Source of the DNA: Escherichia phage MN01
Reading direction: 5' to 3' (one strand)
Sequence record: MT129652.1
DNA length: 64,000 nucleotides
Part shown: positions 4,050 to 47,781 of the stretch, piece by piece
Layout: each line of letters begins with the position of its first letter
Numbering within the stretch: the stretch's first letter is position 1
Made by a program: the position numbers and the translations under genes
Notes under the pieces: model-generated
Seen by the model: only the letters and a program-made list of their open reading frames with translations
What the model was told of the DNA's origin: nothing
The model's database searches: none

Positions 4050-4500
4050 GAAAAACAAGGTGAAAGAATTATCTGCTGGCATTATTTTCATGACTGAAGA
4101 TAAAGAGTTATTCATGGGTCGTGTGACTGGTTCTCGTAAACCAGGTATGCCTGCACACAAATGGGACATCCCTAAAGGTCATGTTGAAGCTGGTGAATCC
4201 CCGATTGAAGCGGCTATCCGTGAAACCGAAGAAGAAACCGGGTTTACTCAATACGACCCGGCATTCTTAAAGGACCTGGGCGAATTCCGTTATTCAGATA
4301 ACAAAAATCTTCACCTGTTTTTGTACACGGTTCCGGTCGAGCATGAGCAGTTCAGACATAGTAAATGCTCTGCCTATCATACCTTCCCGGATGGTAGTTC
4401 GATTCCAGAGTTCGATGCATTTGCTCTGATTAAACCAAGTCAATGGCAGTATGTGATGGGCAAATCGATGTACAAGGTACTGACTCAAATTTTCGGATAA
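4042..4500 (+). CDS. nudE: Nudix hydrolase NudE (e.1)
   Basis: Nudix box GHVEAGESPIEAAIRETEEETGF; position immediately upstream of lysozyme as in T4. Confidence 0.8.
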   Translation: MSKKNKVKELSAGIIFMTEDKELFMGRVTGSRKPGMPAHKWDIPKGHVEAGESPIEAAIRETEEETGFTQYDPAFLKDLGEFRYSDNKNLHLFLYTVPVEHEQFRHSKCSAYHTFPDGSSIPEFDAFALIKPSQWQYVMGKSMYKVLTQIFG

Positions 4501-4526
4501 TAAATACCCCTATATAAGGGGGTATT
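4497..4526 (+). promoter_or_regulatory. Late-promoter-like TAATAAATA plus hairpin sequestering the lysozyme SD
   Basis: AATACCCC (4503-4510) pairs with GGGGTATT (4519-4526); SD AGGGGG sits in the 3-prime arm; ATG at 4527. Confidence 0.5.
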
Positions 4527-5018
4527 ATGAATATATTCGAAATGTTACGCATAGATGAAGGTTGTAAGTTGGATTTGTATAAAGATACTGAAGGCTATTG
4601 GACCATTGGTATCGGGCAACTGATAACTAAGAACCCATCAAAAGATGTTGCTCGTGCCGAGCTCGACAAACTCATGGGTCGCGTCTGTAATGGTCGCATA
4701 ACCCAGCACGAAGCTGAAACATTGTTTAACCGTTCGGTCGAAAAAGCTAAAGCCGGAATCTTGAGACACCCTGTCTTAAAACCTGTTTATGATGTGCTAG
4801 ATGAAGTTCGTCGTTGTGCACTCATTAATATGGTATTCCAGATGGGTGTTGCTGGTGTTGCTGGTTTTCCTAAGGGTATGCGACTTCTGAAGTCTAAATC
4901 ATGGGAAGCAGCTGCTAAGGAACTGGCGGACTCAAGATGGTATAAAGTCCAGACTCCGAACCGAGCCAAACGAGTTATAGAAACGTTCCGTACTGGAACT
5001 TTTAGCGCATACAAATAA
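4527..5018 (+). CDS. e: Endolysin (T4 lysozyme e, muramidase)
   Basis: N-terminus [12 protein letters not shown]...[13 protein letters not shown] and [12 protein letters not shown]...PNRAKRVI closely match T4 lysozyme. Confidence 0.95.
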
Positions 5019-5026
5019 GGTAAAAT

Positions 5027-5329
5027 ATGAAAACGTATAAAGAATTTATCACCGAAGCGCGCGTAAGTGCAGGTAAATTAGAAGCCGCTGTAAATAAAAA
5101 GGCCCATTCATTTCATGATTTACCAGATAAAGACCGTAAGAAACTTGTAAGCCTTTATATTGACAAAGAGCGTATTCTAGCTCTCCCTGGCGCTAACGAA
5201 GGTAAACAGGCCAAGCCTTTGAATTCTGTCGAAAAGAAAATTGATAACTTTGCTTCTAAGTTCGGCATGTCTATGGATGACCTTCAGCAAGCGGCTATCG
5301 AAGCAGCTAAAGCAATTAAAGGTAAATAA
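5027..5329 (+). CDS. Internal head protein (IPIII/IPII-like) with capsid-targeting sequence
   Basis: Starts [11 protein letters not shown], matching the T4 internal-protein CTS MKTYQEFIAE with an I-x-E protease site; 100 aa; adjacent to e as in T4. Confidence 0.7.
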
Positions 5330-5331
5330 CA

Positions 5332-5384
5332 GTTTACTTCCACGATACGTGTGATATAATGTTCTCCTACAAACATAGGAGAAC
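5332..5384 (+). promoter_or_regulatory. Sigma70-type early promoter followed by SD-sequestering hairpin upstream of denV
   Basis: GTTTAC (5332-5337), 17-bp spacer, TATAAT (5355-5360); then GTTCTCCT/AGGAGAAC inverted repeat (5361-5384) containing the SD. Confidence 0.5.
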
Positions 5385-5388
5385 AAAC

Positions 5389-5805
5389 ATGACTCGCATT
5401 AATTTGACCCTGGTATCTGAACTTGCTGACCAACATCTTATGGCCGAATATCGTGAACTTCCTCGCGTGTTTGGCGCTGTTCGTAAGCATGTGCAAAATG
5501 GTAAAAAGGTTTCTGACTTTAAAATCCCATCATCTTTTCTTTTAGGGACTGGTCATGTCACCTTCTTTTATGATAAGCTTTTGTTCCTTAAAAACCGACA
5601 TCAAGAACTTATTGCGGAATGTTTAAAGCGAGGGTTTAACATAAAAGATATTTCTACCCAAGACTTAACTGATATTCCTGATGAATGGAAGAATGATTAT
5701 CAACCATCAATCTGGTCAATTGAAATCAGTCAAGCTAGGCTGAATGAGAAAATTTCTCAAAAGCCCGCTTGGTACAAATACTATGGGAAAGCTGTGTACG
5801 CTTAA
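5389..5805 (+). CDS. denV: Endonuclease V (pyrimidine-dimer DNA glycosylase)
   Basis: [35 protein letters not shown]... near-identical to T4 endonuclease V; 138 aa. Confidence 0.92.
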
Positions 5806-5853
5806 CTACAAAGGTTGTATAATGATTTTATCAACCAAACAATGGAATATAAA

Positions 5854-6153
5854 ATGAAAACTTATCAAGAATTTATTACTGAAGCCAAAGCTCCTAAAGC
5901 ATTTCAAATTGGGGTTCAGGGTAATTTAGACCAACAATATGTTGATGCTATTGTAGCAAGCCTCGGTAAACAGGGTGTACAAGTGGATTTGGTTGATTTT
6001 ACTAAAGGTAATACTTTTAATATTGTTACATCTAAAGGTTCTTTAGCTAAAGTTAAAAAGGCCTTTGGTGTAGCACAAGCATACGAAATCGACCATTCTG
6101 AATTAGAAAATAAAGGTCGCCAGAACACAATTAAAGGTTCTGGTTCTTTCTAA
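5854..6153 (+). CDS. Internal head protein (IPII-like) with capsid-targeting sequence
   Basis: Internal ATG gives MKTYQEFITEAKAPKAF...; CTS identical in pattern to T4 IP proteins; 99 aa. Confidence 0.7.
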   Translation: MKTYQEFITEAKAPKAFQIGVQGNLDQQYVDAIVASLGKQGVQVDLVDFTKGNTFNIVTSKGSLAKVKKAFGVAQAYEIDHSELENKGRQNTIKGSGSF

Positions 6154-6313
6154 TAAAGGCAAGCCGGCCCTCTCCTCATGAACGTCGCGTCCTCTGAGTG
6201 ATGGACCTTTCCCTACCTGTAATAAGGTCGAGCCCAAGTGCGGTAAAGGGTTTACATACGGATACATGGATGAATTATGTGCCAAGGAACGGCCCCACAA
6301 TTAAGAGACAACT

Positions 6314-6841
6314 ATGAAATTTTTAACTCCAATTTATCTAACCTTAATGCACGCCTTCGCTGAACGCGCCATTGAACGCTTAGATTCAGACCAATACGCC
6401 TGGTATGAACCCGCTTCAAGAATGCAAGAGTTTGGTACTCTTAGACTTGATGGTGGAAGACAAACGGGTAAAACAAGTGCCATTGCGCAGTTTGCTGCGG
6501 ATTGGGTTTCTAAGGGTAATGATGTGATTGTTATGTCAAGTTCTTCGCATCGCTCACGAGAAATCTGTGATATAATAAAGCGGGTTTCTAAGGCACAGCC
6601 GCATCTTAATGTTGAACGACCTGGTTTTGTTGTATATGATACTGTTCGTTCATTTTTAGATGAAGATCATTTTCACAAGTATCGTGGACTGTCTGTTACC
6701 CGATTATTGATTATTATTGAAGAGCCTATTCGTCTCCCAGCGATGGATAAGTTCTATGAAGCTTATCAGACAATGATGAATAAATTTATGCGTCAGGGTT
6801 CTAAACCTCTGCCACTGTTCTTTGTGGTAGGAATGCAATGA
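6314..6841 (+). CDS. Hypothetical P-loop protein
   Basis: 175 aa; Walker-A-like GGRQTGKTS. Confidence 0.5.
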   Translation: MKFLTPIYLTLMHAFAERAIERLDSDQYAWYEPASRMQEFGTLRLDGGRQTGKTSAIAQFAADWVSKGNDVIVMSSSSHRSREICDIIKRVSKAQPHLNVERPGFVVYDTVRSFLDEDHFHKYRGLSVTRLLIIIEEPIRLPAMDKFYEAYQTMMNKFMRQGSKPLPLFFVVGMQ

Positions 6842-7137
6842 TGACTGATGAAGAACTTTTTGACAAAATCTACTTTATTCCAAAGGTTAGGTCTGAAGAT
6901 TTCGTAAAGAACTATGAAATCTTTAATAAAGCTAATTTCTTTGAGTATGTGTTTTTGTCTGGGCCTTTTATTGGGTCCAGATTTCGTTGCACTGCTCCGA
7001 GTATTCGCTTGATGAAGTTGGTTCCTTACTTTACTCTGGAATTTATTTCTGGACCGTGTAAGGGTATTATCACTCGTAGCCTCCTGACCTATGACCAGGA
7101 TGTGCGATTAATTAGTGACTGGAAAAAATATGTCTAA
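6838..7137 (+). CDS. Hypothetical protein
   Basis: 99 aa ORF; ATGA overlap with upstream stop. Confidence 0.45.
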   Translation: MMTDEELFDKIYFIPKVRSEDFVKNYEIFNKANFFEYVFLSGPFIGSRFRCTAPSIRLMKLVPYFTLEFISGPCKGIITRSLLTYDQDVRLISDWKKYV

Positions 7138-7344
7138 ATTGACTATTGAAGGTTCTGAAGAAGCTCTGAAGATGTTTGTTGACTGGTTCCACGAACAGGG
7201 CGAACAAGGCTTTATGGAATGTTGGGACGGCGGCCAATGGAATGGTAAAGAAATTGTTTACCCAACTACGTATATCTCCGTGCAAGGTTTGACTGAAGGC
7301 CTTCGTTTGGTAGAATACGATATCGCAACTGGCGAGGAAGTGAA

Positions 7345-17660: not shown

Positions 17661-17744
17661 TAATGGAATGGCTTGCTGTTCTTGGTTATGTAATCGTCGC
17701 CACAGGTATTCTGTGGCTTATATTCTCAAATATTGTAGGTTAAT

Positions 17745-17960
17745 ATGACCATTTTGAGTATCAGTATTATTTTTGGCTATCTTGTGGTAGGATTTATTAC
17801 TACCCTGTTGCTCCACAAGTTTGATAGTCCCTACGAAAGTGGGGACGAGTATGATGCGGCGTTCACAACATTTTGCTGGCCTATATTCTGGGTAGTCGCT
17901 GTTATAATGTGTGTGACCTGGCCTATTGCTAAATTCTATGAAAAATTATTTGGACTATGA
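17745..17960 (+). CDS. Hypothetical membrane protein
   Basis: 71 aa; two hydrophobic helices. Confidence 0.45.
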   Translation: MTILSISIIFGYLVVGFITTLLLHKFDSPYESGDEYDAAFTTFCWPIFWVVAVIMCVTWPIAKFYEKLFGL

Positions 17961-31275: not shown

Positions 31276-31992
31276 TTATTGAGGCTTCATTTTGCAGTTA
31301 TCAAAATGCCAACGTTTCATATTAGCTGGCATACCGACTACATTACAGTGTGGACACTGAATTTTGGGGTCCACCTTTTTCTTCCGGTTTGGATTGGATT
31401 TGCAGAATTGTTGGTGAGTGGATATAACACACTTTTTACCTTCAAGCCCGCAAAATTCACAATTTAAAATTTCATGTTTAGCTTGTTTTAAACCTACTGA
31501 AATTTTTTGCTTTTGCTTTTCCGGAATAGTATGAACAACCTTGTTTGGACCTTTGGAACAGTTATCAAAATGCCAACGATTCATATTGCCAGCGAGACCG
31601 GTTTTTCCACAGTGTGGACATTCGACTCTCGGTTTTAATTTGGCGGATTCTGACATTTTCTTTCTGGTTTCATCGGAGAAAATTTTATTTTGTTGAGCTT
31701 CCAAGTTTTTACGACGAAGCCATCCAAATAATTTGTTTTTGCTTCTGTCGGCATTTGGTGCAGAAACTGTCATCATGCGCGCGGCATAGACCAAAGAAGC
31801 GTTATTTGGATGCATTTTGACCAACAGTTGATGGCAAACGAAATGTTCCTCGGGAGTTAAATCAACAAGATTTGAAGCGTCGTCAGCCCCACCCATACAA
31901 CGGGGTATAATGTGATGGCTTTCAGAGTATGTGGTTAATTTGCGATTCAATGCTCTGCTAATAAGCTTTTGGTAAATGATGTTATAATTCAT
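31276..31992 (-). CDS. HNH homing-endonuclease-like protein with duplicated C-terminal zinc fingers
   Basis: Only long minus-strand gene in the region; HNH core SESHHIIPRCMGGADDASNLVDLTPEEHFVCH; repeats CPHCGKTGLAGNMNRWHFDNC and CPHCNVVGMPANMKRWHFDNC; start taken at internal ATG (MNYNIIYQ). Confidence 0.7.
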   Translation of the reverse strand: MNYNIIYQKLISRALNRKLTTYSESHHIIPRCMGGADDASNLVDLTPEEHFVCHQLLVKMHPNNASLVYAARMMTVSAPNADRSKNKLFGWLRRKNLEAQQNKIFSDETRKKMSESAKLKPRVECPHCGKTGLAGNMNRWHFDNCSKGPNKVVHTIPEKQKQKISVGLKQAKHEILNCEFCGLEGKKCVISTHQQFCKSNPNRKKKVDPKIQCPHCNVVGMPANMKRWHFDNCKMKPQ

Positions 31993-32005
31993 ATCAGACC
32001 CTTGT

Positions 32006-32224
32006 TTGATACTGCAACGGATAATATTATTTATGAGCAATTTTTTAACCGGGCAGCATTTACTGGCTGTCCCTGAAATTAAACGGTATGTGTTAGTTAA
32101 TACCTTTTCGAAAGATGAACACCTTGTCACTGAACGTGACTTGCAAAACGCTTTCGGTGAAGAATATGTTAAAATAATCGCGAACAGACACAATGCCTGG
32201 TTCGCATATGAATACTTTGATTAA
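32006..32224 (+). CDS. Hypothetical protein (uncertain; 45.2 position)
   Basis: 72 aa ORF between the HNH gene and rpbA; no motif. Confidence 0.3.
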   Translation: MILQRIILFMSNFLTGQHLLAVPEIKRYVLVNTFSKDEHLVTERDLQNAFGEEYVKIIANRHNAWFAYEYFD

Positions 32225-44779: not shown

Positions 44780-44971
44780 ATGACTGCAATGTGTACGGGC
44801 TCTAAGATTTCGGTCTTCCAGATTTTTGAAGAATATGAAATCGTGTCGCAAGACCAAGAAGCAATCCATGTTATTGCTGATGATGGGGTTACCTGGATTA
44901 TTCCGTTGTATCATGAAGACACTTATGAAGTGACTGATGCAAATGGTGATAAAGCTATCTTCGTTGTATAA
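44780..44971 (+). CDS. Hypothetical small protein
   Basis: 63 aa ORF. Confidence 0.4.
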   Translation: MTAMCTGSKISVFQIFEEYEIVSQDQEAIHVIADDGVTWIIPLYHEDTYEVTDANGDKAIFVV

Positions 44972-44974
44972 ATA
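44967..44974 (+). promoter_or_regulatory. Late promoter (TATAAATA)
   Basis: Exact T4 late-promoter consensus 17 nt upstream of the ATG at 44991. Confidence 0.45.
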
Positions 44975-44990: not shown

Positions 44991-45158
44991 ATGAAAACAT
45001 TCAAAGATTTTATCAACGAAGATATGGTTGCCGGTGATGCAGGCGGAAACCCAACTAATATCGCAACAGGTACCACTTCCGGGGCAGTTGTCAATAAAGG
45101 CCCTGAACAAATCCCATCAAAAAAGCGTAAGAACAAAGACGATAAACCTACAGTATAA
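44991..45158 (+). CDS. Hypothetical small protein with CTS-like N-terminus (MKTFKDFINED)
   Basis: 55 aa; N-terminus resembles the internal-protein capsid-targeting sequence; late promoter upstream; reading frame depends on the A-run at 45117-45124. Confidence 0.35.
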   Translation: MKTFKDFINEDMVAGDAGGNPTNIATGTTSGAVVNKGPEQIPSKKRKNKDDKPTV

Positions 45159-45190: not shown

Positions 45191-46219
45191 ATGTCATATA
45201 TTGATAAAGAATTTGCAGTCAGAGCTTTATCGTATCAACCACGTTATAGAGAAGTCACCGGGAGCACATTTAAGGCAAACTGTCGTTGCAAGGTTTGCGG
45301 TGACTCTCAGAAAGATTCACACAAGGCCCGATTCTGGGCGTATACCAATCCGGCTGACGGTGCGGTTTACGTGAAATGTTTTAACTGTGACTACTCCACG
45401 CATATAAGCAAATACATAAAAGAGTTTGAGCCTGATTTACATCGGGAATATATGGTTGAGAAGTATAAGGAGAATGCCTTTGGCAGACAACGTAATGAAG
45501 TTGCAGAAACTCCGAAAGAACCAGAAAAAACTCCGGTTATTGAGCAACTTGCTTTTTGCGAAAGAATCGATACTTTACCAGAAGCGCATCCGATAGTTAA
45601 GTATGTAAAAAGTCGGTGTATTCCGAGCAATGTTTGGAACCGGTTATGGTTTACAAACAAATGGCCTGCATTAGTTAACTCCGTTAATCCTGGGACGTAT
45701 AAGAATGAAACGAATGAACCACGCTTGGTTATTCCTATCTTCAACGGCAAAAAAGAAATCGAATCTTTCCAAGGACGAGCTCTTCGCAAAGATGCACCAC
45801 AAAAATATATCACAATCAAAGCCCACCCAGAAGCTTCCAAAGTCTATGGTGTAGACAAGATTGACGAACGCAAGCGCGTGTGGGTAATGGAAGGTCCGAT
45901 TGATAGTTTGTTTATCCCTAACAGCATTGCGATAACCGGTGGAACATTAGCATTGGAAGCCGTTCCTTATGCAGAAACCCGAGTATGGGTAATGGACAAC
46001 GAGCCAAGACATCCTGATACGATTAAACGTATGAAGAAACTTGTTGAAGCCGGTGAAGCCGTTATGTTCTGGGACAATGCACCATGGCATACGAAAGACA
46101 TAAATGAGATGGTTAAATCAGAGGGTGCAACCCCTGAACAAATCGAATCATATATGGCCGATAACGTTACTCAAGGGCTGCTGGCGAGAATGCGACTTTC
46201 GAAGTACGCAAAAGTTTAG
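45191..46219 (+). CDS. 61: DNA primase gp61
   Basis: N-terminal zinc-binding CRCKVCGDS...CFNC, TOPRIM-like core; 342 aa as in T4. Confidence 0.9.
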   Translation: MSYIDKEFAVRALSYQPRYREVTGSTFKANCRCKVCGDSQKDSHKARFWAYTNPADGAVYVKCFNCDYSTHISKYIKEFEPDLHREYMVEKYKENAFGRQRNEVAETPKEPEKTPVIEQLAFCERIDTLPEAHPIVKYVKSRCIPSNVWNRLWFTNKWPALVNSVNPGTYKNETNEPRLVIPIFNGKKEIESFQGRALRKDAPQKYITIKAHPEASKVYGVDKIDERKRVWVMEGPIDSLFIPNSIAITGGTLALEAVPYAETRVWVMDNEPRHPDTIKRMKKLVEAGEAVMFWDNAPWHTKDINEMVKSEGATPEQIESYMADNVTQGLLARMRLSKYAKV

Positions 46220-46416
46220 GAAGGGATTCCGGTAAAGTAACCGATGATGGAATGGATATGTTCCATTGTGACCTGGGGTAAGTGTACCCCTTGTGATGCA
46301 GCGATAGGCACAACCAGTAAGTTCCACAGAAAAACATCAAGAGCTAAAAAGCCCATGATTAGTTTTTTGTCTTTCTTACTGGTTAATTTCCAAATCTGAT
46401 AGAATAATGTTCCCAT
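46216..46416 (-). CDS. Hypothetical small membrane protein, minus strand (paralog 2)
   Basis: 66 aa; GGTGG SD on the minus strand; LWNLLVVPIAASQG motif shared with the neighbouring minus-strand gene. Confidence 0.45.
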   Translation of the reverse strand: MGTLFYQIWKLTSKKDKKLIMGFLALDVFLWNLLVVPIAASQGVHLPQVTMEHIHSIIGYFTGIPS

Positions 46417-46424
46417 AGTTCCAC

Positions 46425-46622
46425 CTATACAAGGCCGATTAATGCCAGTGAAACATCTACAACCGATTCGAGCGCGACGACTGGTAATATAATACCATAT
46501 GTCAATGCAACAGGAGCAACAATGAAGTTCCAGAGTAGAACTGAACAGAGCACCGAAAGGACCAGAATCGTTCGCTTACGACTGCCTTTGATGGCTTGAA
46601 TTAGACTAGATAGTTTTAGCAT
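46425..46622 (-). CDS. Hypothetical small membrane protein, minus strand (paralog 1)
   Basis: Start at internal ATG with AGGAGG SD 6 nt upstream (minus strand); LLWNFIVAPVALTYG motif; 65 aa. Confidence 0.5.
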   Translation of the reverse strand: MLKLSSLIQAIKGSRKRTILVLSVLCSVLLWNFIVAPVALTYGIILPVVALESVVDVSLALIGLV

Positions 46623-46706
46623 ATATCCTCCTTTCTTGTATTTATGCTTCAAACCAATACGATATAATTAACATACAAATAACATGAATTGATAAGGAAA
46701 AATATA

Positions 46707-47508: not shown

Positions 47509-47516
47509 TATAAATA
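47509..47516 (+). promoter_or_regulatory. Late promoter (TATAAATA) for soc
   Basis: Exact TATAAATA about 32 nt upstream of the soc ATG. Confidence 0.55.
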
Positions 47517-47547: not shown

Positions 47548-47781
47548 ATGGGTGGTTTCGTTAATATCAAAACCTTTACGCATGCAGCTGGTGAAGGTAA
47601 AGAAGTTAAAGGTACTGAGGTTTCAGTTCCATTTGAAATCTATTCTGATGCGCATCGTATTGCTAATGCTCATTATCAGACTTTCCCTTCGGCCGTTGCA
47701 GCCTATTCTACTGTAGTGACTGATGCTGCTGACTGGAAGACCAAGAATGAGGCAATGTTTACGCCGACCGATATTGTTTAA
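47548..47781 (+). CDS. soc: Small outer capsid protein Soc
   Basis: GFVNIKTF...EVSVPFEIYSDAHRIANAHYQTFPSAVAAYSTV matches T4 Soc; 77 aa. Confidence 0.85.
   Translation: MGGFVNIKTFTHAAGEGKEVKGTEVSVPFEIYSDAHRIANAHYQTFPSAVAAYSTVVTDAADWKTKNEAMFTPTDIV

Follow-up and report, generated by a model that had tools for sequence, protein, structure and literature searches.

The interval between genes 61 and 56 of Escherichia phage MN01 holds two small genes, here called P1 and P2, on the strand opposite their neighbors. We analyzed them within a stretch of 64,000 nucleotides (nt) of phage DNA (sequence record MT129652.1), referred to below as the window. It belongs to a T4-like phage of the genus Gaprivervirus, and the region around P1 and P2 is 93% identical to phages TH41, UPEC01, and VR20. 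In the list of open reading frames (ORFs), every sizeable frame between 43.3 and 49.6 kb lies on the plus strand except P1 and P2, in line with a preliminary description of this DNA that had reported two minus-strand ORFs of 65 and 66 amino acids in a region otherwise read rightward. The evidence below points, tentatively, to a late two-gene unit encoding related inner-membrane proteins. The locus is laid out as follows.

46425..46622, minus strand: P1 gene, 65 amino acids (MLKLSS...IGLV), ATG at 46622; T4-type member of the phrog_2024 family, putative first cistron
46216..46416, minus strand: P2 gene, 66 amino acids (MGTLFY...GIPS), ATG start; phrog_2024 member of the type found in Dhakavirus and Klebsiella phages, putative second cistron
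46639..46646, minus strand: late-promoter-like motif CATAAATA, a 7/8 match to the T4 consensus TATAAATA, ending 16 nt before the P1 ATG
46627..46632, minus strand: Shine-Dalgarno sequence AGGAGG of P1, read from the sequence, 4 nt before the P1 ATG
46421..46426, minus strand: Shine-Dalgarno-like AGGTGG of P2, overlapping the P1 stop codon TAG (46425-46427) in the sequence ...GTATAGGTGGAACTATG
45191..46219, plus strand: gene 61, DNA primase gp61, from the ORF list and the annotation of relatives; convergent with P1-P2
46707 (ATG) to 47225, plus strand: gene 56, dCTPase gp56, from the annotation of relatives

P1 matches MN01_00182, a hypothetical protein of Escherichia phage MN01, with 100% identity. 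The ORF list gives a 75-residue P1 that begins at a TTG (46425-46652). This longer form was rejected: because the TTG lies upstream of the likely promoter motif and the ATG at 46622 is preceded by AGGAGG, we take 46425-46622 as the true coding sequence. The two genes had been described as a convergent pair; they in fact stand in tandem on one strand, and it is the pair as a unit that converges with gene 61. The P1 stop codon is separated from the P2 ATG by 8 nt, the AGGTGG before P2 is the same in UPEC01 and VR25, and P2 and gene 61 overlap by 4 nt at their stop codons. An Rfam scan of the region returned no family that fits.

The octamer upstream of P1 resembles a T4 late promoter. The sequence (A/T)TAAATA is located 12-21 nt upstream of the ATG in 12 of the 12 lineages examined, is followed in all of them by a strong ribosome-binding site (AGGAGG or GGAG), and is embedded in surrounding sequence that is not conserved; the chance of finding it in a given 30-nt stretch is about 0.004. 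In the window, ATAAATA occurs 9 times on both strands together, with 3 copies on the minus strand, against 21 ± 4.9 expected, and each shuffle of the window gave at least 9 copies. As an internal check on the motif, a perfect TATAAATA at 47509-47516 (plus strand) stands 32 nt before the homolog of soc (47548-47781), which is a known late gene. P1 itself carries a TATAAATA-type -10 element shortly upstream. TAAAT was identified as the late-promoter signature in a differential RNA-seq study of T4 (bioRxiv 10.1101/2024.04.04.588121). Because the late-like motif is conserved, is rare in the window, recurs before soc, and contains the TAAAT signature, P1-P2 are likely transcribed late, in the gp55-dependent manner. 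It counts against this assignment that most lineages begin the 8-mer with C, G, or A instead of T. As a separate observation, the depletion of ATAAATA in the window suggests that stray late-promoter motifs are selected against.

P2 lacks a promoter motif of its own. Together with the overlap of AGGTGG and the P1 stop and the 8-nt spacing, this suggests that P1 and P2 form one bicistronic unit, in which translation of P2 may be coupled to that of P1. A scan for intrinsic terminators from gene 61 to gene 56 on both strands yielded a single weak minus-strand candidate, inside P2. Early rightward transcripts probably cross P1-P2 in antisense, and late leftward transcription probably continues into gene 61. 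On sequence evidence, the opposite strand, the conserved late-like motif, and the absence of the family from distant T4-like phages support the earlier proposal of a separately regulated accessory module.

P1 and P2 have a common architecture, in which a basic amphipathic N-terminus precedes one strongly hydrophobic helix and an acidic tail; K and R cluster before the helix, D and E after it. Hydropathy calculated over 19 residues peaks at 2.1-2.7 in P1, P2, and the PEi20 homolog and at 1.9 in the T4 homolog. The clear hydrophobic helix encompasses residues ~18-41, the C-terminal helix is short (12 residues), and the C-terminus of P2 is not hydrophobic. An AlphaFold2 model of P1 (predicted local distance difference test score, pLDDT, 71) comprises a helix at residues 4-41, a loop at 42-50, and a second helix at 51-62. 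Hydropathy and model both predict one clear transmembrane (TM) helix bearing the motif shared by the two proteins, as the preliminary description had supposed. The charge distribution suggests that the N-terminus is cytoplasmic and the C-terminus periplasmic. A Foldseek search of the model against viral structures recovered family members and noise only.

The shared motif, first given as beginning with LLWN, is real in the form LWN-x-(I/L)V-x-P-(V/I)A; P2 has FLWN instead of LLWN. In our alignment A1 of the family, W31, N32, P37, A39, G43, L46, P47, and E52 are invariant. Among the 17 most divergent members W31 and P37 never vary, and at least 90% of the sequences retain N32 and P47. The family core, W-N-x4-P...G-x2-L-P-x4-E following a basic N-terminus, is present in both P1 and P2.

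The paralogy of the two ORFs, also proposed earlier, is real: P1 and P2 align by BLASTP with 38% identity over 42 residues (E 9e-10), and both match phrog_2024 end to end (P1, E 2.3e-26, residues 1-65 on profile positions 1-65 of 65; P2, E 1.1e-27, residues 1-64 on positions 1-64 of 65). phrog_2024 was the sole family matched in a PHROG scan, with no similarity to Imm or Sp. Pfam and NCBIfam scans gave no match to any relevant family, and none of the PADLOC defense-system models matched at E up to 1. Compared within the family, P1 and P2 are 25% identical, as distant as any two members, and a repeat scan of the region found no DNA-level repeat between them; the duplication is therefore old, and a recent tandem duplication was rejected.

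P1 clusters with T4-type members and is 46-48% identical to an ORF of T4 that lacks annotation. P2 clusters with the JS10, PM2, and CGG4-1 types (55-77% identity); it shares 77% identity with the one copy that JS10 has and 79% with the one in Marfa. By this clustering, P1 and P2 are from the two deepest branches of the family, and the pair would have arisen either by an ancient duplication followed by losses or by the joining of the versions of two lineages. Both genes are under purifying selection, with ratios of nonsynonymous to synonymous substitution rates (dN/dS) against sister phages of 0.02-0.08 for P2 and 0.34-0.63 for P1.

The family is widespread among relatives. In tblastn searches, P1-type genes were found in 694 phage records, mostly Tequatrovirus and including T4 and T2, and P2-type genes in 126 records from Dhakavirus, Marfavirus, Mosugukvirus, Gelderlandvirus, Kanagawavirus, and Gaprivervirus; a further branch comprises many Klebsiella phages and RB69 (RB69ORF029w). 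Nearly all relatives carry one type, the P1 type in T4 and other Tequatrovirus and the P2 type in Dhakavirus, Marfavirus, Mosugukvirus, and Gelderlandvirus. The two types occur together in the window phage and in only some other Gapriverviruses. Elsewhere phrog_2024 has a single member per phage, whereas the window phage and a few Gapriverviruses have two divergent members in tandem. The members RB69ORF029w, VR7 gp033, and the T4 ORF share with P1 and P2 their length, motif, position at gene 61, late-like motif, and strong ribosome-binding site.

At every locus inspected (T4, JS10, Marfa, PM2, CGG4-1, Kosakonia 305, PEi20, RB69, and metagenomic T4-like phages including L018), the family gene is on the strand opposite its neighbors and abuts the 3' end of gene 61. 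The neighbors in all T4-like phages checked are primase together with dCTPase or dam genes. No family gene follows gene 61 in the T4-like phages of Serratia, Acinetobacter, Proteus, and Shewanella. Searched exhaustively by profile, 1.8 billion representative proteins yielded only 14 clusters, which marks the family as narrow. One of these clusters (P0073, 449 residues) was rejected as a repetitive false positive; for the protein P0074, no viral contig and only a marginal phage match were found. In enterobacterial T4-like phages, most of which carry it, the family gene is accessory. The stretch between genes 61 and 56 is also an insertion hot spot, with dam located there in T4 and segF nearby in VR26.

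The preliminary description had stated that this interval contains dam in T4. This is true and incomplete, as T4 also has a homolog between dam and gene 61. It is a 66-residue ORF (MVQKLMALVNAIKGNKKR...) at 17739-17939 on the plus strand (L004, 2739-2939), inside the 309-bp gap between dam and gene 61, with GATAAATA (17701-17708) and AAGGAGG upstream. The ORF has no annotation in either AF158101.6 or NC_000866.4, whereas RB69 and hundreds of relatives annotate theirs. Literature searches on the motif, RB69ORF029w, phrog_2024, and ribosome profiling or small ORFs of T4 found nothing on this gene, and we know of no genetic phenotype for the dam-61 interval. Some family members are mislabeled 'DNA packaging ATPase' or 'dCTP pyrophosphatase' (the P2-type proteins of UPEC01, SAKp28, and vB_YenM_P8, and the one of CGG4-1), labels that could spread; we rejected both as mis-annotations.

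All five Gapriverviruses that were aligned have an undamaged P1. In the sister phages SP18, EAWsc9, and DK-13, P2 is a pseudogene with three different lesions, and DK-13 carries a 249-residue homing endonuclease as an insertion between gene 61 and what is left of P2.

SP18 (L031, 701-817): P2 remnant with a 97-nt deletion at the 5' end
EAWsc9 (L003, 1820-1939): P2 remnant with the ATG lost and two deletions
DK-13 (L030, 1601-2521): P2 remnant with a stop at codon 2 and a deletion

Each type stands alone in other genera, and therefore neither needs the other. The pattern suggests that P1 and P2 overlap in function and may be largely redundant.

Relatives of the family exist outside T4-like phages. 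A distant member (P0080), found in non-T4 viral contigs and enterobacterial prophages, is a truncated call of a gene that encodes 92-97 residues in full. A family of hypothetical 96-residue proteins from enterobacterial prophages (e.g., P0107) was seen on ~940 contigs, with E. coli, Klebsiella, and Serratia among the sources. Alignment of the T4-like family with this prophage family by hhalign gave a probability of 98.5% (E 2e-15) over the C-terminal 50 residues, and a tblastn search with the prophage protein reached S16-type T4-like phages directly (E 8e-4). From these alignments, homology of the T4-like family to the C-terminal half of the 96-residue protein is clear. Both have a TM helix with WN...P, a loop with LPP.P..E, and a terminal helix; the prophage protein differs by one more helix at the N-terminus plus a polar ~28-residue linker, and its gene is not beside primase. 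It is the last gene of a siphovirus-type prophage, with a GH24 lysozyme gene 1.4 kb away on the other strand. A megablast comparison of the prophage locus with complete E. coli genomes returned no match. The same prophage end (L022-L025 on Enterobacteriaceae chromosomes, 4200-7300; L015, 1800-4180) holds a small cluster of T4-flavored genes, one for a lysozyme most like the tail-lysozyme domain of T4 gp5 and one for a SegE-like GIY-YIG protein; the cluster is followed by a KAP NTPase.

These observations are best accommodated by the following explanation. P1 and P2 would constitute one short leftward unit, read late by gp55-directed RNA polymerase from CATAAATA (46639-46646), with P2 translated through coupling to P1. 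Both products would be inner-membrane proteins of ~65 residues whose basic amphipathic N-terminus is kept in the cytoplasm; the TM helix with W-N...P would lead into a G-x-x-L-P-x-x-x-x-E loop, after which the chain would end in a short helix facing the periplasm. They may be non-essential accessory factors that work at the inner membrane late in infection; their most plausible task would be to adjust lysis timing around the T holin. Taken as a whole, a late bicistronic unit of two redundant, anciently diverged inner-membrane proteins that adjust lysis has, in our estimate, a chance somewhat below even. The role in lysis or another late envelope event is a working guess held with low confidence. 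T4 itself offers parallels in the holin T, the antiholin RI, and the exclusion proteins Imm and Sp: these T-even inner-membrane proteins, small or bitopic, have the envelope as their target, and T and RI are expressed late. These proteins differ from P1 and P2 in genome location and, in the PHROG scan, share no sequence similarity with them.

The lead to lysis comes from the prophage relatives. PF11351 (GTA_holin_3TM), named for the gene-transfer-agent holin of Rhodobacter capsulatus, is the top Pfam match for 14 of the 20 prophage members (E up to 0.1), the matches covering profile positions 39-114 of 123, the membrane part. P0080 weakly matches the holin family phrog_3427 (E 5e-4), and two public records label family members 'holin'. 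TeaA of ICP1 was assigned to PF11351 by its authors through remote homology, and its holin activity was measured. Like PF11351 holins, P1 and P2 appear to be small late membrane proteins; they differ in being about half as long, in having one confident TM helix versus three, and in the lack of an adjacent endolysin.

Several results weigh against a part in lysis. The best PF11351 match of the prophage relatives scores 20.5 bits (E 7.2e-4), below the Pfam gathering cut-off of 24.8 bits, and P1 and P2 have no PF11351 match at E up to 10 and are too short for the three TM helices of that family. By hmmscan, ICP1 ORF136-139 and ORF26 of Oceanospirillum phage PD0307 had no Pfam match, and hhalign found no similarity between the prophage family and ICP1 ORF137 or PD0307 ORF26, both reported as PF11351-like; because these comparisons gave nothing, the holin link stays sub-threshold. 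Another holin candidate is located right beside the prophage lysozyme, and no endolysin gene adjoins the family gene in the T4-like phages checked. The public 'holin' labels are unreferenced, and other records plainly misname the protein.

Genetics of T4 points the same way. T4 t mutants neither lyse nor stop metabolism and continue to produce phage, which argues that the T4 copy is not a self-sufficient holin. No mutation from the classical r-mutant screens is known to map between dam and gene 61; the T4 copy is thus unlikely to be a major lysis-inhibition gene.

Of the alternatives, a late, single-component factor for envelope protection or superinfection exclusion survives best, though we regard it as unlikely. 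Such a protein might block DNA entry or lysis from without, with two copies widening its range. Small inner-membrane proteins confined to phages of one host group fit this role, as do variable copy number and fast divergence, which suit an arms-race gene, and the prophage relative is at the cargo end after the tail genes, where add-on genes are common. However, neither protein showed similarity to Imm or Sp in the PHROG scan, the late motif of this gene contrasts with the early expression of the exclusion genes known from T4, and the low dN/dS of P2 signifies very strong purifying rather than diversifying selection.

Slightly less probable is a specific version of the lysis model. Here T-even phages would have retained phrog_2024 proteins, as reduced relatives of 3TM holins, for a membrane component of the lysis clock that has escaped notice; made late, these proteins would be partners of holin T (or RI) in the inner membrane and tune lysis timing or lysis inhibition, the 66-residue ORF would be a new gene of lysis control in T4, and P1 and P2 would be two specificity variants kept side by side. 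That P1 and P2 are themselves holins or pinholins is more doubtful still. They would build up in the inner membrane late in infection before opening holes or collapsing the proton-motive force, as a second lysis trigger beside T. Their size and membrane character suit small holins, and the late-promoter-like motif, the PF11351 and phrog_3427 similarity of the prophage relatives, and the two 'holin' labels are compatible with this idea; yet every holin-family match is sub-threshold, P1 and P2 have none, and the single confident TM helix, the missing adjoining endolysin, and the behavior of T4 t mutants all oppose it.

We give the same low chance to a transcriptional role, in which late leftward antisense RNA entering gene 61 shuts off primase mRNA, early read-through silences P1-P2, and the peptides are secondary. 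Different genera preserve the tail-to-tail overlap with gene 61, and no convincing terminator separates the converging units. In addition, a perfect TATAAATA at 44967-44974 (plus strand) is positioned 17 nt before the ATG of a 61.1-like ORF (44991-45158); it may drive late rightward reading through 61.1 and 61, head-on with the P1-P2 unit, so that late transcription may converge here. Yet it is the protein that is conserved: frames are intact in ~690 records, residues are invariant at 25-50% identity, dN/dS falls to 0.02, and a related protein is encoded in prophages without gene 61 nearby.

A function as membrane-bound assembly helpers, such as late inner-membrane anchors for head or tail-fiber assembly, is improbable. 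The late motif and membrane location would allow it, and T4 head assembly begins on the inner membrane, but neither protein resembles any morphogenetic family, the gene is absent from other T4-like phages of the same virion design, and one copy is dispensable.

A single-protein role in exclusion or envelope protection, as weighed above, thus retains a small chance, unlike the toxin/immunity or two-part exclusion pair suggested by the preliminary description, in which one paralog would damage the membrane and the other neutralize it. Although P1 and P2 are adjacent small membrane proteins that are apparently co-transcribed and translationally coupled, this pair is very improbable, since they are members of one family rather than two different components kept together, nearly all relatives have the P1 type or the P2 type only, P2 was lost in three separate ways while P1 was retained, and no PADLOC model matched; and because neither type needs the other, an obligate toxin/immunity pair is ruled out.

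T4 is among the most closely studied genomes, yet its reference records omit a conserved, apparently late membrane-protein gene. The family is already catalogued and hundreds of relatives annotate the gene merely as 'hypothetical', so novelty is limited to the missing T4 annotation, the conserved late motif, the prophage homology, and the weak holin-family lead. The analysis defines the anatomy of the family, assigns it a likely expression class, and offers a first lead from homology; together these open the gene to direct testing in T4. The toxin/immunity idea can be dropped. If a role in lysis timing or inhibition is true, the 66-residue ORF adds a component to a textbook system; if not, it is one more non-essential accessory gene.

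Two further features of the window concern timing and strand. The first is a candidate middle promoter for gene 56.

46645..46668, plus strand: MotA-box-like TGCTT-N13-TATAAT, read from the sequence

By the known T4 middle-promoter consensus, this element is a candidate middle promoter; a sigma-70 scan did not list it. It would stand back to back with the late motif of P1, with one base in common, and the two would represent two timing classes. The second is a minus-strand ORF at 31276-32034 with features of HNH-type homing endonucleases (MNYNIIYQKLISRALNRK...HHIIPRCMGG...). It has ATAAATA ~36 nt before its ATG (~31992) and is thus another reverse-strand, apparently late-driven gene in rightward surroundings.

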